Source: a bacterium (GTDB lineage Bacteria; Desulfobacterota; GWC2-55-46; S146-80; JALXFI01). Taken from it: a stretch of DNA of 45,475 nucleotides. Position numbers and translations under genes: made by a program. Below are positions 9,122 to 45,475 of this stretch, one piece after another (within the stretch, counting starts at the first letter, position 1; every line of letters begins with the position of its first letter). The notes under the pieces were generated by a model, which was not told the origin of the DNA, did no database searches, and worked only from the letters and a program-made list of their open reading frames with translations. The DNA lies in assembly GCA_027069035.1 (NCBI GenBank), contig JALXFI010000331.1:1-45475 (forward strand). The letters are read 5' to 3'.

Positions 9122-10459
9122 CTAAACCTGGAAGCTGGGCCATCTCTGTCTATTGTATCTATATGCCAGGTCACCTATATAGAGAATTAAAGAGACTATA
9201 AAATAAGTACAAACATTTAAGGGTGAGAAGTGGATGAGATTTGCTATTAGGATCAAAGAAAGCATTATACCAAGAAGAAACAGACGCTCATTGCTATCAT
9301 CCTTTTGCAGGTGAGTGTATTTTATAGCCTTACAGCACAATAAAACTACCCTTAAAAATAAAGTGAAAAACAGAAAGAACCCTACTAAGCCAATTAATGA
9401 CAGATAATGTTCAAAAAAATGAAATTCAGTCCCTATTATTGTTGAGGGTGAATATATGCCATATCCAAAAAGTGTATTGATAGGGTTATCAAGGAGCCTC
9501 TGGTGAATCTCTTTAAGGAGCTTAATAAAATGCCTTGCAAGAACTATATGAACGTTACTTGGAGTATCATTAATAGTATCCGACCAAAGTCCAAAGATAA
9601 AGCCAATATGCACCACAAAAAAAGAAAAGAGAAAGAATAATATTAATAAAGATATAATTATAATAAAAGACACCGAGTAATATATCTGTTTCTTAAGGAC
9701 TTTAAGGTGATTATTGCCTATGCTATAGTAAGCAAGGAAGGATATTGCTCCAATCATAAGCAAGATCGATGTCCTTGAAAGCGTTGTGATGATACCAATC
9801 ATCAGTAATCCTATGATATATTTAATCTTTCTTTTTATAGTAAAAATTTTATCTCCTACTACTATAACTATCAACAGTGAACTCAATATTAAAAATCCTC
9901 CCACCGTTCTGTTTAGAAAAATCCCAAGAGGGCGTATAAAAAGAGTAGGATTCTGCATGACACCAACAACATCTTGATAAAGGTAAAAACTCCTATATTT
10001 TGAAGAATAAAGCAGAAGAGCCTGGCTAAAAGACGGCATAAGATTAGTTAGAGCATTTACCATCTCAAAGATTACATAAGCCGCCGCTATTGTACCACCA
10101 ATAACAATTATTTTTAAGAAGTTATAAACACTCCTCGAACCAAAGGCAATTTTCAGAAAAAAATACATTGCTAGGGGGAAAGTTACGGTGTTCATATTTC
10201 TTACAACAGTTGGTATATCGAATTCTGTCATACCTATTGCTATTGTTAGTGAATAAAACACAAAGAATATTATTGACAAATCATATCTATTAAACTTATA
10301 TCTCTTAAGCAATATCGTGAGGATAGTAAGGTACTGAAGTCCAAATATTATACGATAATAAGGTAAATATATTCCTGTAAAAAGCGTTGTCCATATCGTT
10401 ATCTGGGTAGCTAAGAGTCCAAAAAGAAAGGAGAGATTTAACAAAGAGGTTATCTTCAT
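9122..10459 (-). CDS. Polytopic membrane protein, O-antigen polymerase (Wzy)-like
   Basis: 445 aa and almost entirely hydrophobic helices. ITTLSRTSILLMIGAISFLAY loop/helix resembles Wzy/ligase proteins. Lies between GT genes. Confidence 0.55.
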   Translation of the reverse strand: MKITSLLNLSFLFGLLATQITIWTTLFTGIYLPYYRIIFGLQYLTILTILLKRYKFNRYDLSIIFFVFYSLTIAIGMTEFDIPTVVRNMNTVTFPLAMYFFLKIAFGSRSVYNFLKIIVIGGTIAAAYVIFEMVNALTNLMPSFSQALLLYSSKYRSFYLYQDVVGVMQNPTLFIRPLGIFLNRTVGGFLILSSLLIVIVVGDKIFTIKRKIKYIIGLLMIGIITTLSRTSILLMIGAISFLAYYSIGNNHLKVLKKQIYYSVSFIIIISLLILFFLFSFFVVHIGFIFGLWSDTINDTPSNVHIVLARHFIKLLKEIHQRLLDNPINTLFGYGIYSPSTIIGTEFHFFEHYLSLIGLVGFFLFFTLFLRVVLLCCKAIKYTHLQKDDSNERLFLLGIMLSLILIANLIHFSPLNVCTYFIVSLILYIGDLAYRYNRQRWPSFQV

Positions 10460-14790: not shown

Positions 14791-16377
14791 TTATAAATTT
14801 AGAAGATCAATTAGTCGTTCTTCAGTTGCCTTTCTAAAAAACATGTCTCTGTAATTCTTTGATAATTCAACTATACGATGGATATTCCTGTCTCTAAAAG
14901 CCATTAGCCTTTCATATGCTCGTATCAATTCATCTGCATCAAAGGCAATATCCCATATTTCACCTTTACCGATATCAGGAAGACAGTTAAATGTTATACC
15001 CCTATCATTACCAATTGAAATGACAGAACATCCCATTGTTGCTGCTTCTAAAATAGCACCACTTGAGCCAGAGGAGATCACCACTTTTGTCCTGTCACAG
15101 AGATGATCCAGCTTCTCTTTTGTTATAACCCATCCATCAGGTATTACAAATCCTGGATTATCAACCAGATGATTTGGATGAAGCTTAATTAATACATTGT
15201 TTTCTTTGCCAATCTGCGATGCTGAAACTACGTTTATAATATTCTTAGAGTCCTCAATATGAATTGTTAAAAGAATCAGAATATTATCTCTTTTTATCAG
15301 TTCTTTGTTATTATAATCTTTCCTAAATAGATAATCATACCTTGGTGATACACCAAGCTTATGTTTAAAATTCTTATCTGCGATTGATAGATATGCCTTT
15401 CCTGAAACCAGTATTTCATCCGGCACTAAATTGTATATTTTTTCATTTTTGATAGGGTATATATGTAACCAGAAGGAGAAGGGTATAAAGAACTGACACC
15501 CATATATATAACAATCTACAGTTGAGTCTCTGATACCCCTGTACAAAAACTTGTCATGGCGGCTATTCTCATACCAGCTTACTACCTTCAGACTTCTCTC
15601 TGATAGTCTATTTAATCTTCTCCCCACCAGATAGCTTACAAAGGCAAGTAACTCATTACCGTCAAGGCTGTTGATCAATTCTCTCTTCAATATCACATCA
15701 AAGGAATCGTCAATCTTAAGCTTAAGCACCTGCAATATTACAATGGGATATAAGAGAATAAAGTGCAGTAATCTAAAATAATCACTGATGGTTAAGAGTT
15801 CATACTCGGTAATAAAGATGTTACTATCCTCTGCAAGCATATTGTATGTACGCCATCTCTTCCTAAACTCATAAATCTTAACGCCTGAAAGGAGAGATAA
15901 TATGACATACTGTTTATTTCTCTTCTCTAAAACATCATACATCTTTCCAAAATATGGATCATAAAATCTATCATTTGGGAAATTCTTTTCAACCATTACA
16001 AAAGTATCTATCACAAAGAGCTCTTTGTCAGGGTCTAAAAGCTTCTTATTTTTTGAAGTGAGATTTAATTTTGATATTCTATAAACGAAGAAGTTTAAAG
16101 TAAATAATATAAAACATACGGACGCCTTGGAATAATATTTTATTAGTTTTTTAAAGAGATTAAACCAGTTGATTTTATAGCTTAATTTAATATTTTTAAA
16201 CAAAATCCTTATAGCATCTTCTATAAAAGCACTGGGAACAGGGTCCCTTGTGGTTACAGGGTTGGCTATAAAATAAATATTCTTACAGCACTTCAACACT
16301 ACCCTGTTCATATATTCATTTATGGCAGAACCAATCTCTTTCTGGACGTTGGTATTTTTAGCTATCTCCCTCCACAT
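14791..16377 (-). CDS. Large uncharacterised protein with a GT-B-like C-terminal half (candidate CMP-/CDP-sugar-dependent transferase)
   Basis: About 528 aa from the ATG at 16377 (the ORF-track start at 16395 is a TTG). Hydrophobic helices SVCFILFTLNFFVYRI and LLHFILLYPIVILQVL. C-terminal VLIKLHPNH (HP motif) followed by VVISSGSSGAILEAATMGCSVISIG. Confidence 0.4.
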   Translation of the reverse strand: MWREIAKNTNVQKEIGSAINEYMNRVVLKCCKNIYFIANPVTTRDPVPSAFIEDAIRILFKNIKLSYKINWFNLFKKLIKYYSKASVCFILFTLNFFVYRISKLNLTSKNKKLLDPDKELFVIDTFVMVEKNFPNDRFYDPYFGKMYDVLEKRNKQYVILSLLSGVKIYEFRKRWRTYNMLAEDSNIFITEYELLTISDYFRLLHFILLYPIVILQVLKLKIDDSFDVILKRELINSLDGNELLAFVSYLVGRRLNRLSERSLKVVSWYENSRHDKFLYRGIRDSTVDCYIYGCQFFIPFSFWLHIYPIKNEKIYNLVPDEILVSGKAYLSIADKNFKHKLGVSPRYDYLFRKDYNNKELIKRDNILILLTIHIEDSKNIINVVSASQIGKENNVLIKLHPNHLVDNPGFVIPDGWVITKEKLDHLCDRTKVVISSGSSGAILEAATMGCSVISIGNDRGITFNCLPDIGKGEIWDIAFDADELIRAYERLMAFRDRNIHRIVELSKNYRDMFFRKATEERLIDLLNL

Positions 16378-16378
16378 A

Positions 16379-17731
16379 TCATATCTTCTTTTCAAGCCAC
16401 TTATCTATCAGAAGTTCTGCTACTTTTATATCTGCATCGTTTCTAACCTCGATAGAAGCTACAGGGCTACTTACTTCATAGATACCAATATTTTGACCAA
16501 ATAAGTTGCCCACACGAATAAACTCAGGATGGGTTGCACAACATACTCCCCTTAACTCTAAATAGGTAGGGTCTTTAATTATTCGCGGTGTTAAACCCTC
16601 GTCTAGAAGCTTGATCTTCCCCTTACATTCCTTCCATATTGACTTATTTTCACTTTTCACTGCCACAATAGTATCAAAACCATTTTTAACTAATTGACTA
16701 ATCATATTGTCTATTATGTCATGTGGACGGAATGGGAATGTTATCTCAAGGGTGACAAGTAGGTCAGGAAATATTTTTAAGGATTCCATTTTTTCAACGG
16801 TGTGTTGAAATACACGTTCGATATCAATATAGTCTTCAGAGTATATGGGGTCTCGTAAAAACGGCACTTCGGCACCCAAATTCTCTGCTAATTTAGCAGT
16901 TTTTATGTTATCAGTAGAAACTATAACCCTTTTAACATACTTAGACCCCCTGGCAACTTCTATAGTATAGTCTAAAAGTGGTCTGTCTTTCAGATATGGA
17001 ACCTCTCCCTTTACAGGAATAACTGCTATAATATTCAAATCATTTATATCAACATGGATATTATTCTTGATATCCGGCATCAGATCTTCCAGTATCTTGA
17101 CCACATTAACACATCTACTTGCCTCTCCATTTTGATGTATGCCGTGATAATGGAAGACCCTAGCTTCTGGTTCATATACTATTTTATATTTTTTACGCAG
17201 CATTTTTTCAGCCCATACCCTATCTTCGATATTCGTTATAGTCTCATCAAAAGGAGTTTCCTCCCATAAACTCCTCCTTATCATGCTGTTCGCATTGTGG
17301 AAAAAGCTATCTTTTCTTTGTACTCTTCTGTCAAGACCGAAGATTATAGAAAGATCACGCTTGTCAGAGTCTGAAGTAAAAGCGAGAGGTTCTTGTCGTC
17401 CATAAACCCCTGCTACCTCTTCATCCTGAAAATTTCTAAGAAGGCTCGACAACCATTTTTCATTGACAGGTATACAATGACCCGAAAGGCATACTATGTA
17501 ATCTCCTTTTGCCTCTCTTATACCCATGTTGAGAGCAAGACCAGGTCTATAATCCCTACATTTCACAATTTTCACTATATCAAATTGCTTAGCCTTCTCA
17601 ATCGTCTTATCAGTACTTTCATTATCCACCAGGATAACCTCAAAGTCCCGGTACTCCTGATTGAATACACTCTTCAGGCACATAGTTATCCATCTCTCTT
17701 CATTTTTAGTTCTGATAACAATAGAAACCAT
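16379..17731 (-). CDS. Fusion protein B: N-terminal GT2-like domain (DxD replaced by LSGHC) plus C-terminal CTP_transf_3 cytidylyltransferase-like domain
   Basis: 450 aa. N-terminus VSIVIRTKNEE, ILVDNESTDKT, YIVCLSGHCIPVN. C-terminal half IIAVIPVKGEVPYLKDRPLLDYTIEVA, RVIVSTD, GAEVPFLRDP. Confidence 0.7.
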   Translation of the reverse strand: MVSIVIRTKNEERWITMCLKSVFNQEYRDFEVILVDNESTDKTIEKAKQFDIVKIVKCRDYRPGLALNMGIREAKGDYIVCLSGHCIPVNEKWLSSLLRNFQDEEVAGVYGRQEPLAFTSDSDKRDLSIIFGLDRRVQRKDSFFHNANSMIRRSLWEETPFDETITNIEDRVWAEKMLRKKYKIVYEPEARVFHYHGIHQNGEASRCVNVVKILEDLMPDIKNNIHVDINDLNIIAVIPVKGEVPYLKDRPLLDYTIEVARGSKYVKRVIVSTDNIKTAKLAENLGAEVPFLRDPIYSEDYIDIERVFQHTVEKMESLKIFPDLLVTLEITFPFRPHDIIDNMISQLVKNGFDTIVAVKSENKSIWKECKGKIKLLDEGLTPRIIKDPTYLELRGVCCATHPEFIRVGNLFGQNIGIYEVSSPVASIEVRNDADIKVAELLIDKWLEKKI

Positions 17732-17739
17732 TTGTTTAA

Positions 17740-18474
17740 CTAATTCTCTTTGTCCTCTTTAATAACGTCATCATATTTAATCTCATAGGAACCTATAGAC
17801 TGTTTTGCCTTTAATACATATTCAGCCAGCATAAGATCCTCTTTGGTTTTTATAATAATCGAAGTTTCTTTGCTTACAGGATAATACCCCACTTTGCCAC
17901 AAAATAAGGCGTATCCGTTCCTATCGAACTCCTTTATGAATGTTTTAGTTCGCCACATCATTATTGAATAAACAAATGGCTGGACAGGTTTAAGATCCTG
18001 AGTCTGTGCAAATACCTCACACATCTTAAAGTTAACGGGCTTGCCATCATAGATACAATGGACCTGCTCATTTTTTACTGTTATAAGGGTGTCAAGCCTC
18101 TTCTCAAGGAAATAACTTATAACCTCCCTTATTTCTTTACCCGTCTGCAATGGAGATGTAGGATTTACCCAAGCAACTATATCAGAGGGATATTTCAACA
18201 TAAAGTCATATACAACACTATCCGATTTAGTTGTGGATGAACCAAGTTCTTCAGGTCTAAGGTAAAAGTCTACCCCATAATGCCTTGCAATCTTTGCAAA
18301 GACTCCATAATCCGAGTTCAACACTATCTTATCAAACACCCCTGAGGACTTCGCCGCATCAATAGCATAGGCAATAAGGGGTTTCCCTCTCAATAGAGCA
18401 AGATTTTTTATCTTAAGGCGTGTGCTTCCTTTTCTTGCCGGGATCATAGCTATTATCTTCTCTTTTCTCTTCAA
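17740..18474 (-). CDS. Acylneuraminate (CMP-ulosonic acid) cytidylyltransferase, NeuA-like
   Basis: 244 aa. IIAMIPARKGSTRLKIKNLALLRGKPLIAYAIDAA and NPTSPL. TTG start with AAGGAGGAG 8 nt upstream. Confidence 0.8.
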   Translation of the reverse strand: MKRKEKIIAMIPARKGSTRLKIKNLALLRGKPLIAYAIDAAKSSGVFDKIVLNSDYGVFAKIARHYGVDFYLRPEELGSSTTKSDSVVYDFMLKYPSDIVAWVNPTSPLQTGKEIREVISYFLEKRLDTLITVKNEQVHCIYDGKPVNFKMCEVFAQTQDLKPVQPFVYSIMMWRTKTFIKEFDRNGYALFCGKVGYYPVSKETSIIIKTKEDLMLAEYVLKAKQSIGSYEIKYDDVIKEDKEN

Positions 18475-18501: not shown

Positions 18502-20145
18502 CTAATTATCTCCCCAACGCTTCCACAGTGTAAACTCATGATGCGTCTCAAATATGCCCTTTTGAGCTATCTCTCTATTAATCTTGGAGACATTTGTTAT
18601 TACGTCCCCCGAGGCGACTGAGAGAATATACTCAAAAAGTTCATCCCCCACTTCTTCAATAGACCTACCTTTAAGGACACTTTCTGTGAAGAAATCAACA
18701 TGCTTTTTCAAACCCATTTCATACCTGTTACCTATTTTAATCACCTGACTTAGAGCTGCACCAATAGGCGTACCTAGTCCTGTAGTAAAAGCTACAATCT
18801 GGGAACCCGAGAGACCAAGGGCTGTAGTTGATATTTGATCATAGCTTGGAGCATTCAGCACCCATAGTCCTCTTAAATCTTTATCATATATCCAGTCTCC
18901 GTAGTCAAGTACCCCTTCTATCACAGCGTTCCCACATTTTTGAGCGGCGGATGCAGATTTAACAAATATATTTAAAAGCCCTCCCTTTTTATTACCAGGG
19001 GCAACCTTCTGTCTACCTATCCCTGGTATTGGATATTGTTTGCTTATCCTATCAAAGGTTGGCAATAAGTCTCTCAATTTTCTTGCAACTTCCTCATTGC
19101 GCGCCCGCTCAGCTATTATATGCATATAACCATCAAACTCTGGGATTTCGGTAATGATTGCAGCTCCACCTCCTTTTACCAACTTATCTACTGCTCGACC
19201 GAGAACAGGATTAGCACAAATTCCAGAGAATATATCCGAACCCCCACATTTTAAACCCAATGTTAAGTATGATATAGGCAAAGGTTTTCGCCTACGTTTA
19301 TCAGCCACCCTCAGCAACTCCTTAATAGGTCCGTCAACAATCTGTTCGATTGCTTCCAACTCGCCGAGATAATGTTGGAGTTTATCGCTCATCACTCTCT
19401 TATCAAAATCAATTACTTTTGAACGAAGAAAAGGAATAATATTTTCTGGCGTTTCACTACAAGGCGTCAGATGTTCGCATCCAAGACCGAGTAGAAATAC
19501 AAATCCTATGTTTGGATGATTCATAATGCGAACCAAAATCTGTAGAAGTTCCTCCTTAGCTCCGCCTTCGGGTATTCCACAGCCTGATTCATGAGTAATA
19601 GCAACAACATCCGTCACATGGGGATATTTATGTAAAAGCCTTTTCCTTGCTAAGAAGGCTATATTCTTCACCGCTACTGCAGAACATTTCACTGTACTTA
19701 GTATAGCTACAATATTTTCTGTTCCTCCACCTTCTTTCCCATCAATTGTAACTTTACAAGGAAAACCTCTAAAAGTCCTCTTTAAAAGTAGAGGATCATA
19801 CCGACCTTTTTGGGGCGTGGTGGAAAATGTTTTATTAGAATATATCTCCGTCTCCATCTCACTGCACGCATTGTCATCAATTAATGACCCTGCGTCTATA
19901 AAACATCTCGCTTTTCCAATTGTAATACCAAAGGAGATTATATATTCTCCCTTATCTATATCTTTTATAGAAAAAAGACTACCTACAGGCATATCACTCT
20001 TCAATGTTATCTTTCTTGCGCCATCGTATAATACAAGCCCACAATGTAGAGGCTTTTTAGCTATGGCGATATTATCTCTAAGCTTATAGCCTGATGAATC
20101 TTCTGTAAAATTTGCCACAAAGGCATAATCTGAAAAACTTTTCAT
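18502..20145 (-). CDS. UxaA/GarD-family sugar-acid dehydratase (N-terminal SAF domain plus altronate/galactarate dehydratase C-domain)
   Basis: 547 aa. SAF-like N-terminus (SDMPVGSLFSIKDIDKGEYIISFGITIGKA). C-domain blocks LGLGCEH, LGLKCGGSDIFSGICANPVLG and ITEIPEF. Confidence 0.75.
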   Translation of the reverse strand: MKSFSDYAFVANFTEDSSGYKLRDNIAIAKKPLHCGLVLYDGARKITLKSDMPVGSLFSIKDIDKGEYIISFGITIGKARCFIDAGSLIDDNACSEMETEIYSNKTFSTTPQKGRYDPLLLKRTFRGFPCKVTIDGKEGGGTENIVAILSTVKCSAVAVKNIAFLARKRLLHKYPHVTDVVAITHESGCGIPEGGAKEELLQILVRIMNHPNIGFVFLLGLGCEHLTPCSETPENIIPFLRSKVIDFDKRVMSDKLQHYLGELEAIEQIVDGPIKELLRVADKRRRKPLPISYLTLGLKCGGSDIFSGICANPVLGRAVDKLVKGGGAAIITEIPEFDGYMHIIAERARNEEVARKLRDLLPTFDRISKQYPIPGIGRQKVAPGNKKGGLLNIFVKSASAAQKCGNAVIEGVLDYGDWIYDKDLRGLWVLNAPSYDQISTTALGLSGSQIVAFTTGLGTPIGAALSQVIKIGNRYEMGLKKHVDFFTESVLKGRSIEEVGDELFEYILSVASGDVITNVSKINREIAQKGIFETHHEFTLWKRWGDN

Positions 20146-20180: not shown

Positions 20181-21386
20181 TTATAAAAGCTCTATATATT
20201 TATCTCCTAAAAACCGAATGTCTATCCACCTACTACCATATTTAAGACTCTTATTTACGGCCTCAATTATCGCTGTGGGAACAATGGAAGCCTTGAAGGT
20301 TGGTCTCACACCCTCAAAAGCTTCGATCTCCTTACCCTCAGACTCAACTCTTACCACATCCCTGAAAAATTGAAGAATACTTTCAATACCATATCCCTGA
20401 AAGGAGATATTACCCTTCTGATAGCCATAGATCGAGCAGAAATCAGGATTAGGCTCTTCAATCCCATCCGTATCATGGACAATGTAGATACCTCTTCTCT
20501 TCTGGTCTGCCTCAAAGCGTCCTTTTGTAGCAATCACCTTAATCTTCTGGTCAGACATGGCAGAAGAGGTTTCAGGGTCTATCCAGTTAGTAAAAAAAGA
20601 GGATGAAAATATCTCTCCTGATGGCATTCTCCACTCAACAATAGCCTGTATGGAATCATAGGTGTCAATACCCTTTGAAGCCAAGAACATCTTCTGCCCT
20701 ATTGCCATTGCCCTTAGGGGGAGGGCTTTAGTTGCAAAATATATGATATCTGCATAGTGGACACCGAGGTATTGGAATATATTCGTTGTTTTGGCCCAAG
20801 CCTTAAATCTCTCCAGAGGGATACTCTTTCTCTGACTGTATTCTATTATGAAATACAAAGGGGTGCCTATCCTGCCACTTAAAATAGTATCTCTTAGTTT
20901 CAGATTAGAACGGTCTAATCTCTTATGAAACTCTACAGCACAATAGACATTATATTTCTCTTGAAGTTCTATTAATTCCAGGACTTCCTTGACTGTAGGT
21001 GCAAGGGGTTTAACCACAAGTGTATGAAGATCATTTTCAATCGTCTTGCCTGCTATCTTCCGATGGAGATTGTCAGGAGTTACAACTATCGCACAGGCAG
21101 GTTTGGAGATTTTTAGGATTGCTTCTTCGTAAGCTTCAGAATTGTAATGACTTTCTGGTAGATATCTTGGTCGAATCTCAAAGCCAAAGAGTTTATTGAG
21201 CTCTGCAACTTTTTCCTTTAAGGCATCTATGCCTTCTGGGCTAGCGCCCGCAATATAAATATCAGCGAGCATATTCATACGTTTCCATTCATACACAGCA
21301 GGCAGAACAGTTCCGTAACCTTCCGTCCCCCTTCCACATACATACATACCTGTCCCTATGATAAGTATATTTATTCTTTGCAACAT
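20181..21386 (-). CDS. Gfo/Idh/MocA-family NAD(P)-dependent oxidoreductase
   Basis: 401 aa. INILIIGTGMYVCGRG Rossmann start, VVTPDNLH, LVVKPLAPT (EKP-like motif), EFHKRLD. Confidence 0.75.
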   Translation of the reverse strand: MLQRINILIIGTGMYVCGRGTEGYGTVLPAVYEWKRMNMLADIYIAGASPEGIDALKEKVAELNKLFGFEIRPRYLPESHYNSEAYEEAILKISKPACAIVVTPDNLHRKIAGKTIENDLHTLVVKPLAPTVKEVLELIELQEKYNVYCAVEFHKRLDRSNLKLRDTILSGRIGTPLYFIIEYSQRKSIPLERFKAWAKTTNIFQYLGVHYADIIYFATKALPLRAMAIGQKMFLASKGIDTYDSIQAIVEWRMPSGEIFSSSFFTNWIDPETSSAMSDQKIKVIATKGRFEADQKRRGIYIVHDTDGIEEPNPDFCSIYGYQKGNISFQGYGIESILQFFRDVVRVESEGKEIEAFEGVRPTFKASIVPTAIIEAVNKSLKYGSRWIDIRFLGDKYIELL

Positions 21387-21470: not shown

Positions 21471-22466
21471 CTAACCTTCTATAACCTCATCTATTACAGC
21501 ATCTTTATAGCGATGACATGTCCTGCAGGGTTTCATCTCTAAACGTCGTTTTTCCATATGAAGTCTTCTAAGGCTCTCCATTTTCTCCCCCAACCACACT
21601 TCTTTAATAGTATTCTCTTTCAAGTTACCTATAGGTATGTCAATGTCCCAGTCCGCAATGCAGACCGGAATCAACCCTGTAGAGGTGATGGTTATCCTTT
21701 GCCATAGAAACTGACATACAACCTCTTCATCCTGCTCAACGCTTCTTAAATGATAATCATGTTTGATGTTAAAACTTATATTGTCTGTAATAGGTTTAAA
21801 CATCTCATAGTATTCTCTAAGTTTACCCTTCGTGTATTCATATATCCCCTGAACCTTCACCTTAGGAAACCCCTTTCCAAATCTTTCTTTGAGTTCATAG
21901 AGTTGTTTAACCTTTCTATATATGTCATCGAAGCTAAGGGGTGTACGAAGATTATTATAGTGTTCTCTGAGAGAATCGATACTGATTGTTATATAATCGA
22001 GACCTGCTTTAATAAGCTTCATGTCAAAGTCTTTACTAAGGGCAGAGCCATTGCTAAGCAGAGATATTTCCTTAATTCCGGCTTTTCTTGCATATTCGAT
22101 CATATCTATAAGCATAGGATTTAGCGTTGACTCACCTCTCCAGCTTAACCTTATCGAATAAAGATTGTTTGCAGCACATTCATTTATACCCTTCCTATAA
22201 AGATCGAAGTCCATGTCAACATATGCATGTTCCTTCTTAAAATGCCTTCTAAAACACATAGGACAGGTTAAATTGCAACGAGAACTTGCCTCAAAATCCA
22301 CATGCAATGGGAAAGGGGCCACATAAAACCAGCGAGGATAATTAAACCATTGGAAGCGATTTTGAAAATAATAAAGTGGGAATCGGCGCTCCTCTTCCCA
22401 ACGTCGCTGTCTTTCTCCTTCGTCTATGCATGCCTGATTTATATTTATCTTTGTCTTAAGCCTCAT
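21471..22466 (-). CDS. Radical SAM enzyme with a Cys-poor SPASM/twitch-like C-terminal domain (paralogue 1)
   Basis: CNLTCPMC (CxxxCxxC). C-terminal Cys set C(QFLW)...C(IADW)...CRTC. Start moved to the ATG at 22466, which has GGGAGG 7 nt upstream; the ORF-track ATG at 22481 lacks an SD. Confidence 0.85.
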   Translation of the reverse strand: MRLKTKININQACIDEGERQRRWEEERRFPLYYFQNRFQWFNYPRWFYVAPFPLHVDFEASSRCNLTCPMCFRRHFKKEHAYVDMDFDLYRKGINECAANNLYSIRLSWRGESTLNPMLIDMIEYARKAGIKEISLLSNGSALSKDFDMKLIKAGLDYITISIDSLREHYNNLRTPLSFDDIYRKVKQLYELKERFGKGFPKVKVQGIYEYTKGKLREYYEMFKPITDNISFNIKHDYHLRSVEQDEEVVCQFLWQRITITSTGLIPVCIADWDIDIPIGNLKENTIKEVWLGEKMESLRRLHMEKRRLEMKPCRTCHRYKDAVIDEVIEG

Positions 22467-22566
22467 TTTTAATCCTCCCATTATCGATTGCTCGAGTAAT
22501 ACAACTATTACTAAGCATCAGTCCCTCACTAATCAAAGTAACTCAATGGAGTCACCTATATGGCAC

Positions 22567-23534: not shown

Positions 23535-24596
23535 TTATCCAAGATAATCTTCAGCTAAAATACTTTCAATCTGCCCAACAACATTAAATATACCATCCGT
23601 CAGAATTGATGCCAAAGTGGTAGAATTGTTATAAAGTCTTTGCCTCTCTTCAATATCTTTTAAAAAATCCTCAATAATGTCTCCCATCTCATCATTATTT
23701 ATAAGAGATACTTCACGTTTTATTCCTTTAACAAAACCCCTTTCTATCAATGGTGAAATATTTTTCACCTCTGTGTCTATTGAAGGCAGAACAAGTGTGG
23801 GTATACTCAACGCTATCATTTCGTATACAAGAGTCCCTCCAGATGTTATAGCTGCTTCACATTGGGATTGAAGATATACTAAGTTTGTACAATTTTGTAT
23901 AAGTTGCACTCTTCTTTTTTTGTCTTTGTTGAGCAAAATGGTTTTTATGTCTTGTAAGTATTTGAAAGCAGGACCTAATGCTATCAGGATTCTGAAAGAG
24001 TTATAATTATTCGAAAGCAATACATTTAAAACTCTTGATGAAATATTACAAGGGTCCGCTCCTCCAAAACAAATGAAGAGATTCCTAATAACTGGTGAAT
24101 AACTTGTACGTTTATAATTAGATATCTCAGGGGCAATCACCATATAGTCAATACCAAGCAAATAACAGGTTTTTAGTGAGCAATAGCGTTTTTCATCATG
24201 AGCAGTTAATGAAGGGTTTATTAACAATGTAGGTTCAATAAACTCCGTACTCACATCTTCATATACAACAGTTATAAGCTTCTCCTGATTGGCAAGATCT
24301 ATAATATGCTTTTTCCCATCTCTTAGATCAATATAAATGATAGCATTCAATTCTTTCGCAAGACAAACTATCTCCTTAGCCTCTTCTAAAGGCTTAACAT
24401 TTCTGTCCAGAACTTCCACATGGAAACCACTACTTTTGACTAAATTCACCCCCTCTGGATAGTTTTTCATTATAAACAGCAAATCTACATCTCTTCTTTT
24501 CAGTTCGTAAGCCAACCGCAGACATTTGAAGACATGTCCCATAGCAACACCATATATGTTACCTCCATCTACTCTGAAGATTATCTTTCTGCTCAT
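23535..24596 (-). CDS. PseG/SpsG-like nucleotide-sugar hydrolase (GT28-C-like fold)
   Basis: 353 aa. IIFRVDGGNIYGVAMGHVFKCLRLAYELKRRD matches the PseG N-terminal G-x-G-H...R/K-C-L pattern. ICFGGADPCN and ITSGGTLVYEMIALSIPTLVLP match the C-terminal half. Confidence 0.65.
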   Translation of the reverse strand: MSRKIIFRVDGGNIYGVAMGHVFKCLRLAYELKRRDVDLLFIMKNYPEGVNLVKSSGFHVEVLDRNVKPLEEAKEIVCLAKELNAIIYIDLRDGKKHIIDLANQEKLITVVYEDVSTEFIEPTLLINPSLTAHDEKRYCSLKTCYLLGIDYMVIAPEISNYKRTSYSPVIRNLFICFGGADPCNISSRVLNVLLSNNYNSFRILIALGPAFKYLQDIKTILLNKDKKRRVQLIQNCTNLVYLQSQCEAAITSGGTLVYEMIALSIPTLVLPSIDTEVKNISPLIERGFVKGIKREVSLINNDEMGDIIEDFLKDIEERQRLYNNSTTLASILTDGIFNVVGQIESILAEDYLG

Positions 24597-24598
24597 TA

Positions 24599-25609
24599 CT
24601 ATTCCAAAAGGGCAGATGAGATTAACGTATACTTTGGAATATCCCTCTTTAACTTTTTACCAAGAAAATCATTTATTAATTCAAGTTGACTTTCAGGGGT
24701 AGAAGGAGTAAGAAATTGGAGGTCATTTATTGTAAGTATATCCCCCTTTGACAAAGCCCTTCTTGAGTAAATTCCACGCCTTTTCCTAAATCTCTGACTT
24801 ACTTCGGATGTAGAGGGGACCTTAACCCCATCTCCGATAGCTTTTTCATAATTACGGACAAAAGAAACTAACCTTTTTAGCTCATCTGGTGAAGCTGAAC
24901 AGGCATGGTCTGGACCGGTCAGACTCTTATCCAGTGTAAAATGTTTTTCTATCACTTTTGCACCCATACAAACTGCTGCAAAAGCAATCTCTATACCAAC
25001 TGTATGATCAGAAAAACCATACGGATAGTTAAAGGTGGTAGCAAGAAGAGGTATAGCAGAAAGGTTACACTCTTCAATTGTGGTAGGATAACAGGAGACA
25101 CAATGTAAAATAATGATCTGTTTGTTTCCTTCCTCTTCAATCCATCTTACCGCAGTAGCAACCTCATTAAGGTAGCTCATACCGGTCGACAATATTATAG
25201 GTCTACCAAGTCTTGCCGCACTTTTAATAAGTTCTTTATAATTAAGATCCATTGAAGCAATTTTTACCGCTGGAGAGTTAATATTTTTAAGGAACTGAAT
25301 ATCTTCAAGAGATTCAGGTGTAGAAAATATTACACCATCTCTTTTTCTTGTATATTCGAATAAAAAAGCGTAATCTTCATAACTCAATTCACACATCTTA
25401 GCTGTTTTAAAACCAGGGTTGTCAGGATGTATAAAGTTTTCTGTTTTATAAGTCTGAATTTTCACCGCATTGGCTCCACACTCAAGTGCTGCATCTATAG
25501 TTTCACAGGCCAGTTTAACATCGCCATTATGATTGATGCCTATCTCAGCTATTATGTAAGCAAGCGATTCATCGCCTATTCTTTTGCCAGATATATCAAC
25601 ACATTCCAT
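24599..25609 (-). CDS. NeuB-family ulosonic acid synthase, paralogue 1 (NeuB/PseI/LegI class; specificity unknown)
   Basis: 336 aa. IIAEIGINHNGD, ILHCVSCYPT, FSDHTVG, VIEKHFTLDKS. C-terminal SAF-like RRGIYSRRALSKGDILTINDL. Confidence 0.9.
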   Translation of the reverse strand: MECVDISGKRIGDESLAYIIAEIGINHNGDVKLACETIDAALECGANAVKIQTYKTENFIHPDNPGFKTAKMCELSYEDYAFLFEYTRKRDGVIFSTPESLEDIQFLKNINSPAVKIASMDLNYKELIKSAARLGRPIILSTGMSYLNEVATAVRWIEEEGNKQIIILHCVSCYPTTIEECNLSAIPLLATTFNYPYGFSDHTVGIEIAFAAVCMGAKVIEKHFTLDKSLTGPDHACSASPDELKRLVSFVRNYEKAIGDGVKVPSTSEVSQRFRKRRGIYSRRALSKGDILTINDLQFLTPSTPESQLELINDFLGKKLKRDIPKYTLISSALLE

Positions 25610-31442: not shown

Positions 31443-32210
31443 TTATACCTTTAAGAAAAGCCTGTCATAAGCATCTATCACGTTTTTAAGGTTCAACTGC
31501 TTTGAGTTCTCTCTCAGGAAGTTAACAATCTTAACAATCCTTTTATAATCCTCAGGCGTATCCATCGTAATTCTAACATCAGGTCGATTCTGCCAGTCTT
31601 TAGCATGTAGAGTTACGACATTAAAGTTATCTATATTCTCATGTATATAATCTACAACATGTTCGAAATGATTAGACTTATATGCCTTTTGATGAGATAT
31701 TTTTAGTGCTTTCAAGGTAACAATCTCTTCTTGAGCCCCAACTGGGAGATTTTTGATATATGTATAGTCTGCCTTTAGTGTCAAATGCTCTGCCAACATC
31801 CGTGCTGTTGAATTCATATCTGTTAAAGGGTCATCAGCTGTTGCTCTAACGATATCAGTTACACCAAAGTTTTCTGCACATTCAATATACCTCTTAAGCA
31901 CATTATCACTACTACCTGTTATATATTGCATCTTATAATCATCCAAAATAAGTCTTACAAGTTCTGCTTCTCTCTCTTCAGAAAGAGCCACATAAACCCT
32001 CTCTGTATCAAAATAATGTAAAAATCTCTTTACCAGAAAAACGATAGCAGGCATTCCAAATATTGGAGCTAATATCTTCGCATGAAGTCTTGAAGACCTT
32101 ATCCTTGCCTGGATAATAATTCCCCAACTTTTAGAGCTGGTAATTATATCTCTCTCTTTCTGCAAATCTTTACTCTTTTGTAGTGTTTCGACAAATAAAT
32201 TGTCTTTCAT
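31443..32210 (-). CDS. SpsF-like cytidylyltransferase (CTP_transf_3)
   Basis: 255 aa. IIIQARIRSSRLHAKILAPIFGMP, SDNVLKRY, IVRATADDPLTD. Confidence 0.75.
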   Translation of the reverse strand: MKDNLFVETLQKSKDLQKERDIITSSKSWGIIIQARIRSSRLHAKILAPIFGMPAIVFLVKRFLHYFDTERVYVALSEEREAELVRLILDDYKMQYITGSSDNVLKRYIECAENFGVTDIVRATADDPLTDMNSTARMLAEHLTLKADYTYIKNLPVGAQEEIVTLKALKISHQKAYKSNHFEHVVDYIHENIDNFNVVTLHAKDWQNRPDVRITMDTPEDYKRIVKIVNFLRENSKQLNLKNVIDAYDRLFLKV

Positions 32211-32216
32211 AGCTAC

Positions 32217-33980
32217 TCAATAATACACTATATCATGGATTGTCTTATAGAAATCGAAGTTTTCTTCCATATTAATTAGTTCCCGAAATTTCTCAAAAGG
32301 ATAACTTCTTTTATTGTTCTCAATGTCATTAATCCACTCAATTATCTCTTCAGCAGTTTTCACACACATGTCAGGAAAATCTCTATAATAGAAATATTGT
32401 AAAGATGGATCAACATCAAAGACAAAAGTTGGGAGTTTAAACTGTAAAGCTTCAGCTGCAAGAGATGAACCCGCGGTAATAGCATAGCTAACTTTTAACA
32501 TCAATTCATATGGACTACCAGTATAAACTTCTATATTAGATGGTTTATCCTTTAATGTTTCTAATTCATTGTAGAACTGTTGAACCCTTTTTGTAGGGCC
32601 GAGCTTTGGCTTAATATATAAAGTCCTGTCACTAAAAAAAGAGGCAACTTTAAATAGTTCCTTATAAATATATTCCCATTTTTTATTCTGAGGACTCTGG
32701 AAAAATACTATATCTTTCGGACGATTTTTTATAGATGATTTGAGTTGTTGTAAAAACTTCAGTCCATGTAAACTACCCACTGGGATTACCTTCATATTCT
32801 TACTCCAACAATGTCCTATTTTTTTATATACGTGAGAACCAAAAACAAAGAATATGTCAAAATCGATATGTCGCCAGATAGAAGTTACACCGGGAACAGG
32901 CAAACCATGATGCATTCCTATTGATTTGACATTCTTCTTTCTTAAGAGTGAGGTCCTCACAATATGCTCGGGGGCATATTCATCCCTTCCCCAGAATGCT
33001 TTTATCTCATATTTACCTAAGAAAGCGCATATTCTTGCTTTTCTATATGGGAGTAAAATTATCTCTTCGAATAACTGACTCTGGACATCCGAGAATCTAA
33101 AATAAAGTGTATTTATATCCTTAAATAGTTCAATTAACAGTTTGATAAATTGCATTATTGTTACTGCGCCATCACTACGCGAGGTATAATGTACTCCATT
33201 TAATTTATTTGTTATATCATTCAATAGCTTCTTGGGTATACTGTGGCGAAATAAGATCAGTAGATCAGTTTTACTTTTTACAGAATACAACGCTATATCT
33301 GGATTGGAATGATTAGAAGAAGATATAAAAGAAATCGGTTCTATATGAAAATCATACACAAGAACAAACCGTTTCTTCTTAGTTTTAAACCTCAGCTTTA
33401 AGATCAAATATGAACAAATTCCTATAAAGACTAATATGGAGTTAAGAAAATTAGAAATCTTATATAATAATGGAGTATAGGAAGCGAGTTTATTATCCAT
33501 TTTTTTATCAGGGAAGCACAGGTTAAATAATGCGATATCTTCTTCTGTTGTCCCAAGAAGAGTATATTTAGGGTTAGAGGTATTTAATTTGTCAAGAATA
33601 TATTTAATCTTAACCAGTTGTATCAATTTTCTTTTTATCTCCCTGATATTTATTTTTTCAATAGCATAAGAATATTCTATATCTTCGTATATTCTCTCTT
33701 TTTTTATTACATCATATGCTTTCTGAAGCAGAAGTTCTATTTCATTATACTCCTGATATCCTGGTGCAACCTCTCCAAACCTCAATCTATCAGAAAAGAG
33801 TGTATCAATATGTTGCACCTTGTTTAATTCTACTAATTTTCTAATCAAAAATGAGAGGAGATATCTGTTGACAAAAATGAAAGGTTCAATTGCAACGTAA
33901 AAAACCCTTCTTTTGAGGATAAATATATTCCACAACAATAATATAAATGTAATTTCGTTTACAATAATTAAGAGGGTCAT
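32217..33980 (-). CDS. Large uncharacterised membrane-anchored protein with a GT-B-like C-terminal half (candidate transferase/polymerase)
   Basis: About 587 aa from the ATG at 33980 (the ORF-track start at 33998 is a TTG). Hydrophobic MTLLIIVNEITFILLLWNIFIL and SILVFIGICSYLILKL. C-terminal VIPVGSLHG, DIVFFQSP and YAITAGSSLAAEALQFKLPTFVFDVDP. Confidence 0.4.
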   Translation of the reverse strand: MTLLIIVNEITFILLLWNIFILKRRVFYVAIEPFIFVNRYLLSFLIRKLVELNKVQHIDTLFSDRLRFGEVAPGYQEYNEIELLLQKAYDVIKKERIYEDIEYSYAIEKINIREIKRKLIQLVKIKYILDKLNTSNPKYTLLGTTEEDIALFNLCFPDKKMDNKLASYTPLLYKISNFLNSILVFIGICSYLILKLRFKTKKKRFVLVYDFHIEPISFISSSNHSNPDIALYSVKSKTDLLILFRHSIPKKLLNDITNKLNGVHYTSRSDGAVTIMQFIKLLIELFKDINTLYFRFSDVQSQLFEEIILLPYRKARICAFLGKYEIKAFWGRDEYAPEHIVRTSLLRKKNVKSIGMHHGLPVPGVTSIWRHIDFDIFFVFGSHVYKKIGHCWSKNMKVIPVGSLHGLKFLQQLKSSIKNRPKDIVFFQSPQNKKWEYIYKELFKVASFFSDRTLYIKPKLGPTKRVQQFYNELETLKDKPSNIEVYTGSPYELMLKVSYAITAGSSLAAEALQFKLPTFVFDVDPSLQYFYYRDFPDMCVKTAEEIIEWINDIENNKRSYPFEKFRELINMEENFDFYKTIHDIVYY

Positions 33981-34008
33981 TGAGGAAAGTTGAAACAAAG
34001 GCTAAAAA

Positions 34009-35520: not shown

Positions 35521-37269
35521 TCACATTATCCGTTTTAATTCTTCTGCCCACAATCTATACCAGTCTCTTCTGGTATAGGCATATCGCTCGCAAAACTCGT
35601 TACGTGCCTTCTGAACTTCTGGACTCAACCACCATTTTAATGGGTTATCGAATATCCTTTTAACTTTTTCTGCAGCACTTACAGGATCTTTATGAAGTAT
35701 CTCGACCCCTCTCAATAAATCAAAGTATTTCTCTGCCTCTGGTCTCATAAGAAATACACTATGGTCCCAATAGAGTACACAGGGGACATTTATAGCCAAT
35801 GCCTCAAGAAAAGAGGTGTAAGGATGATCTATAACTACAAGATATGCCCTTTGCATTAGTTCCGTCAACCTGCCTTTAGTGTTAAACTTTACCTCTGGAA
35901 CTATATTCCTTATATAATCTTCTTCAATCTCTCTCCATTCTTTATCTACATATAGTCTGTACAAAACCCTATTCTTAATTTTTTGTGGGAGTGCATTCAA
36001 AAACTGCTTCTTACTCTCGAAATACATTGCGATATCATCGGATCGTAGTGTAGTTACAAACTTAAAAACATATCTACGAACAACGTTACCAACATATACA
36101 ATATATTGGGAGCGCTTCGAGGGAGAGTATTTATCCCTGAGCCTTGATAGATGAGGACTGGGGAGTGGCTTAATATTCTCTCTACAACTCCAGCCCCATG
36201 TATAAAAAAAATCTTTCTCCTGAGCCATCTTCTCCTCTTGGTGAGCTAAAGCAGTTCCATAAATACCCCCATGTTGAAACTCTACTATCTTAGCTCCTTT
36301 TATCAATCTCTTTGCAGCAAAAAACTTAAAAGGCTCAAAAAGACGCCACCCTGTAGCAGAACCTATTATTTTCACAGCATCAAGCTTTCCTTTCTTATTC
36401 ACTAACTTATCATACATACCATAGTTTTCTACATATGATACCGGTATAGCGCCAGGGATGAGTTGCAACAATATTGATTTGAATATATCAGAAGAATTGT
36501 TATCAATGCTTAATCTTTTTCTCATATCATAAGAAAGAGCGACCTTACTACAATTTATTCCAGGGGTGTCAAAATTTATGTAAGAGAAATTTCTTATACC
36601 CAATCTTAAGATAAGAGAGAACCAGTCCCTTATAGCTAAATGGTTGTACATATAGCTTAATACAATATGGCCATTGAAAATCCATTCTAATGGTTTTAAT
36701 AAAGTGAGAAGTATTTTTCTCTTGCTACTATACCTCATGCCATAGGGGCTGGCCTTGTATTCATATTGTACCTCTTTTATTCTATCTGGGCATAGCTCAT
36801 AACTAATTAGGCTAAATAACTTAAGATTAAAATAATCTTCTTTTACAATTCGATTAATAAAATCATTTGTATCCAGCGTTATCAAATTACACTGCTCTCT
36901 TGGAAGCACATGGGTATAAAAGTCGAATAACATTAGGGCATTTTTCATCCTCCTAAATCTCTCATAAAGAACCTCTGTAAAAATTAAAAGCCAATCTCCA
37001 ACAAGAATCTTCCAATACTTCAAAGGATAAGATACGTTATGTATATAATTTAACCTTTCGGCTAATTGGGTCATTAACTCGTTGTATATATTATAACAGT
37101 AGTCGGCATCTTCCTTTATCTCAATAGCAGACTTCCATGGAGAAGCTGCTATAGGATAGTAAGGGTTATTCACCATGTTGTTCTTTAAACACCATGTGCC
37201 CAGCAGGATTACCTCCTTCTCTAAATCCCATATGTCTGATATCCTGGTTGTAGCAAGATAATATCTCAT
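35521..37269 (-). CDS. Large soluble putative transferase; resembles, from memory, the Leptospira LIC12162-type family found beside neuB/neuA genes
   Basis: About 582 aa from the ATG at 37269 (the ORF-track start is a TTG). IVEFQHGGIYG and YLVVIDHPYTSFLEALAINVPCVLYWD. The family call is unverified. Confidence 0.4.
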   Translation of the reverse strand: MRYYLATTRISDIWDLEKEVILLGTWCLKNNMVNNPYYPIAASPWKSAIEIKEDADYCYNIYNELMTQLAERLNYIHNVSYPLKYWKILVGDWLLIFTEVLYERFRRMKNALMLFDFYTHVLPREQCNLITLDTNDFINRIVKEDYFNLKLFSLISYELCPDRIKEVQYEYKASPYGMRYSSKRKILLTLLKPLEWIFNGHIVLSYMYNHLAIRDWFSLILRLGIRNFSYINFDTPGINCSKVALSYDMRKRLSIDNNSSDIFKSILLQLIPGAIPVSYVENYGMYDKLVNKKGKLDAVKIIGSATGWRLFEPFKFFAAKRLIKGAKIVEFQHGGIYGTALAHQEEKMAQEKDFFYTWGWSCRENIKPLPSPHLSRLRDKYSPSKRSQYIVYVGNVVRRYVFKFVTTLRSDDIAMYFESKKQFLNALPQKIKNRVLYRLYVDKEWREIEEDYIRNIVPEVKFNTKGRLTELMQRAYLVVIDHPYTSFLEALAINVPCVLYWDHSVFLMRPEAEKYFDLLRGVEILHKDPVSAAEKVKRIFDNPLKWWLSPEVQKARNEFCERYAYTRRDWYRLWAEELKRIM

Positions 37270-37271
37270 GA

Positions 37272-40908: not shown

Positions 40909-40909
40909 A

Positions 40910-45328: not shown

Positions 45329-45475
45329 CTTTACCCACCTTTTGTAAAAAATACTCAAAGGTCATTTTCAGTCCAGCATACAGGTCCCATTTAGGTTCAA
45401 ACCCCAATATCTGCCTCGCCTTTGAGATATCAGAGAAGTTCCTTCTAACATCGCCAGAGCGAGTATCTCCATAAA
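45309..45475 (-). CDS. Extended SDR NAD-dependent sugar epimerase/dehydratase (GalE/WbpP-like); C-terminal fragment, 5' end outside the window
   Basis: My translation of the minus strand gives YGDTRSGDVRRNFSDISKARQILGFEPKWDLYAGLKMTFEYFLQKVGKDVRSKG-stop. The GD-x-R...DISKA...LG-x-P-K pattern is the typical C-terminus of this family. Its TAG at 45309-45311 overlaps the next gene by 20 nt. Confidence 0.7.
   Translation of the reverse strand, partial: YGDTRSGDVRRNFSDISKARQILGFEPKWDLYAGLKMTFEYFLQKVGKDVRSKG

Follow-up and report, generated by a model that had tools for sequence, protein, structure and literature searches.

Glycosyltransferases of the GT-A fold share a core composed of a DxD motif, an xED base, a G-loop and a metal-binding C-terminal histidine (C-His) (Taujale et al., PMC7185993). 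Documented departures from this core are the DxH variants in families GT27 and GT60, the loss of DxD in the metal-independent families GT14 and GT6, and the pseudoenzyme COSMC, in which both DxD and xED are gone (PMC7185993). Here, we examine fusion B, a protein encoded on the minus strand of a 45,475-nucleotide stretch of DNA from a bacterium of the Desulfobacterota (assembly GCA_027069035.1, contig JALXFI010000331.1; the window hereafter means this whole stretch), in which a glycosyltransferase domain of family 2 (GT2) is joined to a domain resembling the synthetases of cytidine monophosphate (CMP)-activated sugars (Pfam CTP_transf_3).

In CMP-sugar synthetases, Arg12, Ser15, Lys16 and Lys21 contact the phosphates, Asn22 contacts the ribose and Arg71 selects cytosine; the K21A substitution abolishes activity and K16A attenuates it (PMC6580227). 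The D209A variant is inactive, kcat of D211A is reduced 15,000-fold, a salt bridge links Arg165 to the sugar carboxylate, and R165A is inactive (PMC2901514). In ElaB, the equivalent Asp pair, D211 and D213, holds Mg (PMC13656337). The enzymes form obligate dimers in which the dimerisation domain is swapped (PMC2901514, PMC13656337).

Two described systems come closest to the locus analysed here. EpaA of Acinetobacter prophages likewise carries a CTP_transf_3 domain fused to an enzyme of nonulosonic-acid tailoring, and a dual role as cytidylyltransferase and reductase has been suggested from its domains (PMC12053666); in EpaA, this domain lies at the N-terminal end and is joined to an aldo-keto reductase, whereas the partner in fusion B is a glycosyltransferase. 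ElaABC is a CMP-legionaminic acid 8-epimerase cassette composed of a Gfo/Idh/MocA oxidase, a CTP-transferase and a short-chain dehydrogenase/reductase (SDR), in which the sugar is tailored while linked to CMP (PMC13656337). Our literature search for the domain architecture, for pseudo-CMP-sugar synthetases and for the combination of Gfo/Idh/MocA (GFO), Ldh_2 and cytidylyltransferase genes found no description of the fusion family, and only ElaABC and EpaAB as analogues.

Our working hypothesis, to which we assign a probability of roughly 0.5, is that the N-terminal half (N-half) of fusion B is an active nucleoside diphosphate (NDP)-sugar glycosyltransferase with a metal site formed by an S-x-H motif and C-His, and that the C-terminal half (C-half) is non-catalytic, still binds a ligand and would couple the glycosyltransferase to a ulosonic-acid pathway.

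Domain structure of fusion B

Pfam searches matched Glycos_transf_2 (PF00535) to residues 3-156 of fusion B (96 bits; cutoff 23.3) and CTP_transf_3 (PF02348) to residues 247-359 (39.3 bits; cutoff 22.6). The latter match spans profile positions 21-121 only, leaving unmatched the first 20 positions, which include the phosphate-binding loop (P-loop). The protein contains no strongly hydrophobic segment. Fusion B is most likely a soluble two-domain glycosyltransferase. The AlphaFold2 (AF2) model is moderately confident (predicted local distance difference test (pLDDT) 72.7; predicted template modelling score (pTM) 0.47), with residues 351-420 below 50. The protein is divided as follows:

16379..17731, minus strand: fusion B, whole open reading frame (ORF), 450 residues from an ATG start, with GT2 domain, linker and CMP-sugar-synthetase-like domain
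17132..17731, minus strand: GT-A (GT2) half, residues 1-200, predicted to be catalytic (Pfam, AF2, Foldseek)
17039..17131, minus strand: inter-domain linker, residues 201-231 (pLDDT below 50 for residues 196-227; 47% identity in the close clade)
16382..17038, minus strand: CMP-ulosonate-synthetase-like half, residues 232-450, predicted to be non-catalytic (partial PF02348, hhalign, matches in the Protein Data Bank (PDB))

A preliminary description of the window had called the catalytic motifs of both halves degenerate. All of the strings quoted there are present: YIVCLSGHCIPVN at residues 78-90 and IIAVIPVKGEVPYLKDRPLL at residues 234-253 of fusion B, RVIVSTD at residues 268-274, GAEVPFLRDP at residues 286-295, IPARKGSTRLKIKN in the ORF at 17740-18474 and IPARGGSKAIPKKN in the ORF at 38396-39118.

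An invariant S-x-H motif stands in place of DxD

Three motifs of the GT2 half are central to its interpretation:

17468..17485, minus strand: S83-G-H85-C86-I-P88, standing where DxD would be (alignment to K4CP and 6p61)
17222..17227, minus strand: E169-D170, the xED motif (catalytic base), where helix 169-179 starts
17144..17152, minus strand: H194-Y-H196, with H194 as the putative C-His (conservation and alignment)

HMMER placed S83-G-H85 opposite the DxD of solved GT2 enzymes (L-D-C-D in K4CP, V-D-A-D-D in 6p61); with K4CP, in which the spacing is equal, S-G-H aligned to D-C-D. In MAFFT alignments with GT2s of the short-spacing L-D-x-D-D type, a five-residue gap was opened after S83-G84, and the two programs agree that the first Asp is replaced by Ser; the preliminary description, which had found the first acidic residue missing, had placed the motif correctly. 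E169-D170 lines up with the motifs QED, AED and CEE in ordinary GT2s from the same window, and H194 is invariant in the alignment with the ordinary DxD-type GT2s of the window, its position suggesting structural equivalence to C-His.

To count residues, we used a family alignment of 121 representatives spanning 32-60% identity. S83 and H85 are present in 121/121, and C86 and P88 in 118/121 each; the quoted deviations are, therefore, not due to chance. The nucleotide-binding segment is similarly conserved (D36 in 119/121, S39 and D41 in 120/121 each), as are Y110 and Q113 (121/121 each), D126 (120/121), the block F144-H-N-A-x-S149 (120-121/121), W173 (119/121) and Y186 (121/121). E169 is found in 121/121 and D170 in 120/121, and around the putative C-His the counts are 121/121 for H194, 115/121 for H196 and 121/121 for G197. 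Overall, the GT2 half is very strongly constrained, more so than any other part of the protein, with 52 of 200 columns at least 90% conserved (120-121 representatives).

The model of this half agrees with a GT-A fold, pLDDT exceeding 85 across most of residues 1-110 and 150-195, and Foldseek returned SpsA, TarS, TarP, WrtF and K4CP with a probability of 1.0, as well as PmHS2. Fusion B has in common with SpsA, TarS/TarP, WrtF and the N-terminal domain of K4CP the PF00535 domain, the GT-A fold, the D...S.D segment, xED and C-His; it differs from them in the invariant S-x-H-C-x-P in place of DxD and in the second, fused domain. Compared with ordinary inverting GT2s, it has the extra invariant blocks YGRQ, DKRDL, FFHNANS and H-x-H-G.

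Fusion B thus lacks the DxD of the GT-A core, and the third-position His resembles DxH. The likeness to the GT27 polypeptide GalNAc-transferases and to GT60 consists of this His and C-His as putative metal ligands (PMC7185993); in contrast to those enzymes, fusion B has Ser for the first Asp, has no lectin domain, and is bacterial, cytoplasmic and soluble. The GT2 half matched the GT27 structure 6s22 weakly (E 7e-4), with His and C-His present and Asp replaced by Ser. These data do not support placing it in GT27 or GT60.

We also considered that both halves might be inactive, making fusion B a COSMC-like pseudoenzyme scaffold, given that neither half has a textbook motif. We regard this as extremely unlikely: COSMC has lost both DxD and xED (PMC7185993), whereas neither xED nor C-His varies in the fusion B family, and across phyla the N-half retains 54% identity and 52 near-invariant columns, a constraint typical of an active site. 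Hence, the GT2 half is most likely an active, inverting, nucleotide-sugar-dependent glycosyltransferase with a DxH-like (His/His) metal site, metal binding at the S-x-H/C-His site being a prediction from the motifs. The earlier claim of a non-standard metal motif in the GT2 half is borne out by the invariant S-x-H; the claim of degeneracy does not hold for this half, in which S83 and H85 are invariant and xED and C-His are kept, and it does hold for the C-half, as described next.

The C-terminal half has lost the P-loop and the Asp pair of CMP-sugar synthetases

In profile-profile comparison, hhalign aligned the C-half family with the family of a neighbouring standalone CTP_transf_3 protein, CTP3a, over 216 columns with 99.6% probability. 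PDB matches of the C-half were 6ifd, 9ftb, 9t4z, 1qwj and 1eyr, and its fold is homologous over ~215 residues to those of NmCNS (1eyr), VcCMAS (6ifd), ElaB, PseF and KdsB. By these comparisons, the C-half is a true homologue of CMP-sugar synthetases. Fusion B failed all NCBIfam equivalog cutoffs, scoring 64.5 against 205.7 for PseF and 16.3 against 234 for the KdsB subfamily. Correspondences with NmCNS, the N. meningitidis enzyme, whose numbering we verified from the 1eyr alignment, are as follows:

16979..17020, minus strand: truncated P-loop, I-P-V-K241-G-E-V / P-Y-L-K-D-R-P, with an eight-residue deletion relative to IPARxGSKxxxxKN
NmCNS R12: K241 in fusion B
NmCNS K16, K21 and N22: deleted in fusion B
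16853..16855, minus strand: NmCNS R71, R293 in fusion B (in F-L-R-D-P), equivalent of the cytosine-selective Arg
NmCNS Q104: E329 in fusion B
NmCNS T106: T331 in fusion B
NmCNS P164-R165: P382-R383 in fusion B (carboxylate-binding Arg)
NmCNS G176: G395 in fusion B
16442..16450, minus strand: NmCNS D209-I-D211 (Mg-binding), E428-V-R430 in fusion B

Thus, like the CMP-ulosonic acid synthetases, the C-half has counterparts to Arg71, to the T-x-P-x-R block, to P164-R165 and to G176; unlike them, it has the eight-residue deletion, Glu for Q104, E-V-R at the Asp pair and a fast rate of evolution. Conservation of the E-V-R itself is confined to the close clade; across the broad family, Glu occurs in 39/121 and Arg in 35/121. 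A proper alignment had been set beforehand as the check on whether the catalytic residues are truly missing: hhalign opened an eight-residue gap over the P-loop and did not restore them. This agrees with the preliminary description, which had reported that the canonical N-terminal loop is absent and that the later blocks RVIVSTD and GAEVPFLRDP are kept.

Because K16, K21, N22 and the Asp pair are lost, the C-half would make no CMP-sugar, and we conclude that it is not a canonical CMP-sugar synthetase and most likely serves in ligand binding or docking. The earlier suggestion that this half cannot synthesise CMP-sugars in the canonical way is in line with these losses and with its faster evolution. 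A truly bifunctional protein, in which the C-half would be a non-canonical active cytidylyltransferase as implied by the label 'CMP-N-acetylneuraminic acid synthetase/GT2 family glycosyltransferase', would be in keeping with the PF02348 score above cutoff, with the JGI names, with the basic residue K241 at the R12 position, and with the adjacent CTP3a, which is strongly conserved and also lacks the Asp pair, so that Asp-less chemistry may exist in the clade. Yet the P-loop deletion removes K16, K21 and N22, of which loss of Lys21 alone abolishes activity, substitution of D209 or D211 cripples the enzyme, the K16, K21, N22 and Asp-pair positions are not conserved in the family, and the PseF score is far below its cutoff. 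We therefore consider bifunctionality very unlikely. In solved enzymes, as in the 1eyr structure, the P-loop and the Asp pair lie on the same subunit. This speaks against a complementary heterodimer in which the fusion would supply the acidic residues missing in CTP3a, an arrangement that we rejected since E428 and R430 are not conserved.

The two halves evolve at different rates. Mean identity to the query is 54% in the N-half versus 22% in the C-half, the N-half being the more similar in 120/120 representatives, and 0 of 214 C-half columns reach 90% conservation compared with the 52 of 200 in the N-half. The C-half is nevertheless not decaying: it is maintained in the close clade, where every copy is full length, identity is 58% and 29 columns are invariant. 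Its best-conserved positions in the broad family are G395 (104/121) and the basic pocket residues R293, R335, K/R386 and R406; the R293 position holds 88 Arg and 13 Lys among the 121 representatives, and the R383 position 54 Arg and 20 Lys. Because the cytosine- and carboxylate-binding arginines are kept, a CMP-linked or free ulosonic acid is most likely still a ligand of the C-half. A module for binding, scaffolding or regulation, as proposed in the preliminary description, would be reasonable in light of the lost catalytic residues, the fast evolution and the retained R293 and R383.

Alternatively, the C-half could bind no ligand and act only as a dimerisation or docking scaffold, as a homodimer or with CTP3a, keeping the GT2 half complexed with the CMP-sugar pathway. 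Such a role would suit the very fast evolution of a domain with no column at least 90% conserved and with no remaining Pfam signal in diverged members, the obligate dimerisation of CMP-sugar synthetases through a swapped domain (PMC2901514, PMC13656337), and the tight, often translational, coupling of CTP3a to the fusion. Against it, the best-conserved C-half residues are pocket arginines (the R71 and R165 equivalents and their neighbours) rather than an obvious interface, and AF2 confidence is lowest in the region equivalent to the dimerisation domain. We see this scaffold as possible, though rather unlikely, and retain ligand binding by the C-half as our working hypothesis.

Like COSMC and other pseudoenzymes, the C-half would be a paralogue without catalytic activity that is retained for a different function; it differs from COSMC in that the inactive part is related to nucleotidyltransferases and is fused in cis to an apparently active glycosyltransferase, and in that the glycosyltransferase half keeps xED.

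The S-x-H motif and the synthetase-like domain in other proteins

Among annotated plasmid records, matches were to the N-half of fusion B only. They include three standalone GT2s with 32-40% identity to the N-half:

Gloeothece verrucosa PCC 7822 plasmid, WP_013334580.1: standalone S-x-H GT2 (6971-7849 of L087)
L. plantarum exopolysaccharide plasmids, WHQ67492.1: standalone S-x-H GT2 (4245-4964 of L089)
Pararhizobium plasmid ORF: standalone S-x-H GT2

All three carry L-S-[AG]-H-x-x-P, an NANS-like block, ED and H-x-H, and all except the L. plantarum protein carry YG[RK]Q. Two of the loci are annotated, those of Gloeothece and L. plantarum. Both include GT1, GT2 or GT4 genes, the Gloeothece locus additionally has genes for pyruvyl-transferase and ABC-transporter proteins, and CTP_transf_3 and NeuB genes are absent from both. 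Because the S-x-H motif is shared by standalone GT2s of exopolysaccharide loci without CMP-sugar genes, it is not an adaptation linked to the fused domain.

Conversely, the window encodes a second, independent fusion, which we presume to be the one that the preliminary description named fusion A:

43952-45358, minus strand: fusion A, 458-468 residues, GT2 and CTP_transf_3-like domains

Its GT2 half is canonical (R-L-D-A-D-D and Q-E-D). Its C-half has I-P-A-M-G-L-F-R-N-R-E-K at the loop and K-I-E at the Asp-pair position, without a GSK/KN loop, and conservation among 118 fusion A members does not extend to the P-loop or the Asp pair, whereas it does include 'P-f-l-R-p', which contains the Arg71 equivalent. 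The C-halves of fusions A and B are 29% identical (E 1e-19) and nearer to each other than to standalone enzymes. The fusion A family is large and includes archaea (Aenigmatarchaeota, Hadesarchaea). Because fusion A carries the same apparently dead domain on a canonical DxD GT2, this domain is a recurrent GT2 accessory, whatever the metal motif.

These comparisons bear on donor channelling, a possibility raised in the preliminary description. In the form considered here, the GT2 half would be metal-independent and use as donor a CMP-ulosonic acid handed over by the dead domain. The loss of the first DxD carboxylate would be compatible with this idea, as would the invariant His, Arg, Asn and Ser residues of the N-half and the presence of a CMP-sugar synthetase homologue in the gene module; known CMP-sugar transferases need neither DxD nor metal, and GT-A enzymes such as GT14 and GT6 can lose DxD (PMC7185993). 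However, the S-x-H GT2 stands alone in exopolysaccharide loci without CTP_transf_3 or NeuB genes, C-His and H85 look like a metal site, fusion A has the dead domain on a normal DxD GT2, and the module has its own GT-B transferase (see below), whose top structural matches include TarL and TagF, which use cytidine nucleotides. Channelling is weakened by these findings, and we judge it improbable; an NDP-sugar donor, bound with the help of an S-x-H/C-His metal site, remains our preferred reading for the N-half.

Fusion B is part of a conserved gene module

We determined the genomic context of the fusion in 78 species loci, counting a gene as near if it lies within six genes of the fusion. In the window, the neighbouring genes are:

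17740..18474, minus strand: CTP3a, standalone CTP_transf_3 protein, 8 nt from fusion B, with an intact P-loop and I-I-K at D209-x-D211
18502..20145, minus strand: UxaA/GarD-type (altronate/galactarate) dehydratase homologue, GD_AH, sitting where most relatives have Ldh_2
20181..21386, minus strand: Gfo/Idh/MocA-family oxidoreductase
14791..16395, minus strand: GT-B-fold transferase, 528-534 residues, with an invariant H406-P407, downstream of fusion B

A Ldh_2-family dehydrogenase, a Gfo/Idh/MocA oxidoreductase and CTP3a are each near the fusion in 50 of the 78 loci, their order being shuffled across phyla; no Ldh_2 was found in the window. Directly upstream on the same strand, the fusion is preceded by CTP3a in 21 loci, by GFO in 15 and by Ldh_2 in 10, and the spacing between the CTP_transf_3 gene and the fusion is mostly -14 to +7 nt. 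In the window, the junctions of fusion B read TAG-8 nt-ATG upstream and, if the 528-residue start of the GT-B gene is used, TGA-T-ATG downstream. The order GFO, GD_AH, CTP_transf_3, fusion and a ~524-residue unannotated protein is repeated in another contig (L090). CTP3a matches best, over its full length, the CMP-NeuAc synthetase of N. meningitidis (E 2e-22), and its I-I-K in place of D209-I-D211 is conserved in the CTP3a family (47 orthologues).

The AF2 model of the GT-B protein is confident (pLDDT 90.7; pTM 0.89). Its top Foldseek matches, generic GT-B enzymes that include TarL, TagF, UGTs, BshA and NeuC, have low TM scores of 0.35-0.42 and do not discriminate between sialyltransferase-like, TagF-like and UGT-like proteins. 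It has only 20 database relatives at E <= 1e-10 and matches weakly the NCBIfam model TIGR04326 'surface carbohydrate biosynthesis protein'. A further recurrent family of ~640 residues, U638 (11369-13285 of L001 and equivalents in 27 of the 78 loci), has no Pfam or PDB sequence match and contains the conserved blocks ISHGSH...EWGEHGR, LHAGTPK and SFSSTTIEEAL. PDB sequence and profile searches with the GT-B protein and U638 gave nothing useful, and Pfam gave only a sub-threshold match, that of U638 to the putative glycosyltransferase family DUF6716. B12 radical-SAM enzymes are, like U638-like large proteins, near the fusion in 27 of the 78 loci, and a YhcH/NanQ-family (sialate anomerase-like) gene accompanies the module in some genomes.

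By analogy, the module resembles an ElaABC-type CMP-nonulosonate tailoring cassette, in that Gfo/Idh/MocA, CTP_transf_3 and a second redox or lyase enzyme are encoded together. It differs from ElaABC in having Ldh_2 or a UxaA-type dehydratase rather than an SDR, in a CTP3a without the Asp pair, and in the addition of the fusion and often a GT-B protein.

A hypothetical mechanism for fusion B

In our working hypothesis, the N-terminal GT-A domain would bind a nucleotide sugar via D36, S39 and D41, with E169-D170 acting as the base of inverting transfer and a divalent metal held by H85 and H194, S83 replacing the first carboxylate. The C-half, descended from a CMP-ulosonic-acid synthetase, would bind a CMP-linked or free ulosonic acid, would probably dimerise like its ancestors, and would tie the transferase to the CMP-sugar pathway of the adjoining, translationally coupled genes.

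Several observations weigh against this hypothesis. The putative metal site has two His ligands only and no carboxylate, and the invariant C86, H145 and H196 have no place in the proposed mechanism. Asn22, which binds ribose, is among the residues deleted. In the broad family, conservation reaches 90% in none of the C-half columns, the R293 position holds Arg in only 73% of the representatives, and the C-half of the most diverged members is no longer detected by Pfam; such low conservation would be weak for a specific nucleotide pocket and would equally fit a purely structural role. Finally, because AF2 is poor at residues 351-420 and pTM is 0.47, any relative placement of the two pockets would be conjectural.

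A more far-reaching scheme, which we offer as a distinctly improbable speculation, is that the module makes a new CMP-activated 2-ulosonic acid without the use of an aldolase. The Gfo-family enzyme would convert an aldose to an aldonate, Ldh_2 or the UxaA-type dehydratase would convert the aldonate to a 2-oxo or 2-oxo-3-deoxy acid, and the Asp-less CTP3a would activate this acid with CMP. The dead domain would then hold the CMP-sugar as acceptor for glycosylation by the S-x-H GT2 domain, and the disaccharide donor thus built at the nucleotide level would be moved by the GT-B enzyme. The scheme builds on the chemistry of the Ldh_2, dehydratase and Gfo families and otherwise on the exchange of Ldh_2 for the dehydratase alone.

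The fusion B family is old and widespread

The 120 best homologues among 5.8 billion proteins are all 444-471 residues long, 60-72% identical to fusion B and contain PF00535 and PF02348; those with a named source come from Nitrospirota, Planctomycetota (Scalindua, Brocadiaceae) and Omnitrophota. A survey of the architecture had been proposed in advance, and our exhaustive HMMER scan of 1.84 billion 50%-identity representatives yielded 536 clusters at E <= 1e-30, the best 150 of which are nearly all full-length matches of 420-470 residues, down to 32% identity. When one genome per GTDB species was scanned with a pattern limit, relatives of fusion B were confirmed in at least 236 species genomes, and the best 80 of the 236 stretches are 80 distinct loci. 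The sources include Thermodesulfovibrionales, Planctomycetota including anammox bacteria, Omnitrophota, phyla of the Candidate Phyla Radiation, Desulfobacterota and SAR324, and also Pelagibacteraceae (SAR11), Legionellaceae, Cyanobacteria, Acidobacteriota, Bacteriovoracaceae and others. Annotated phage records contained no match to fusion B. We conclude that the family is old and widespread. Its members are automatically labelled glycosyltransferase, CMP-N-acetylneuraminic acid synthetase, or both.

Other features of the window

The window (1-45475) is a single-strand locus for polysaccharide and ulosonic-acid biosynthesis: the minus strand carries all 37 ORFs of at least 150 residues. The GC skew is negative over its whole length, and the GC content is 32-41%. 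The window contains three NeuB paralogues, four standalone CTP_transf_3 genes, radical-SAM/SPASM and B12-radical-SAM enzymes, AsnB-like amidotransferases, WbqC, several GT2 and GT4 genes and a Wzx-like flippase. The closest relatives, with up to 77% identity, come from metagenomic Nitrospirota, Planctomycetota and Omnitrophota.

24599-25609, 37272-38336 and 39874-40965, minus strand: three NeuB-family synthase paralogues, none reaching the NeuB or PseI equivalog cutoffs
31443-32210 and 39129-39905, minus strand: two divergent SpsF-like CTP_transf_3 proteins, with an A/V-R-x-x-S-x-R-L loop and only the second Asp kept
21471-22481 and 40910-41911: radical-SAM/SPASM genes
32217-33998, 35521-37275, 9122-10459 and 23535-24596, minus strand: sizeable ORFs (593, 584, 445 and 353 residues) without a Pfam match

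The presence of three NeuB paralogues in one locus suggests that several different nonulosonic or ulosonic acids may be made. Both SpsF-like products also match the N-terminal part of the TIGR04321 'spiro-SPASM' model, and the N-terminus of the 593-residue ORF product is hydrophobic.

Implications

Fusion B can be described as a GT2 enzyme with a pseudoenzyme accessory domain, and nothing in this description contradicts established principles. The label 'CMP-N-acetylneuraminic acid synthetase' is almost certainly wrong for the fusion B and fusion A families, and counting the fusions as CMP-sugar synthetases would inflate the capacity for sialic-acid-like sugars attributed to metagenomes. The fusions would illustrate how a nucleotidyltransferase paralogue can be put to a new use, as a non-catalytic module attached to a glycosyltransferase, and fusion B would be a test case for how a GT-A enzyme works with Ser-x-His for Asp-x-Asp; the standalone GT2s of Gloeothece and L. 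plantarum, which come from cultured bacteria, could be tractable models for this S-x-H sub-type. More broadly, fusion B marks a conserved, uncharacterised gene module for what may be an acidic surface sugar, and working out one member would provide a function for four or five gene families at once.

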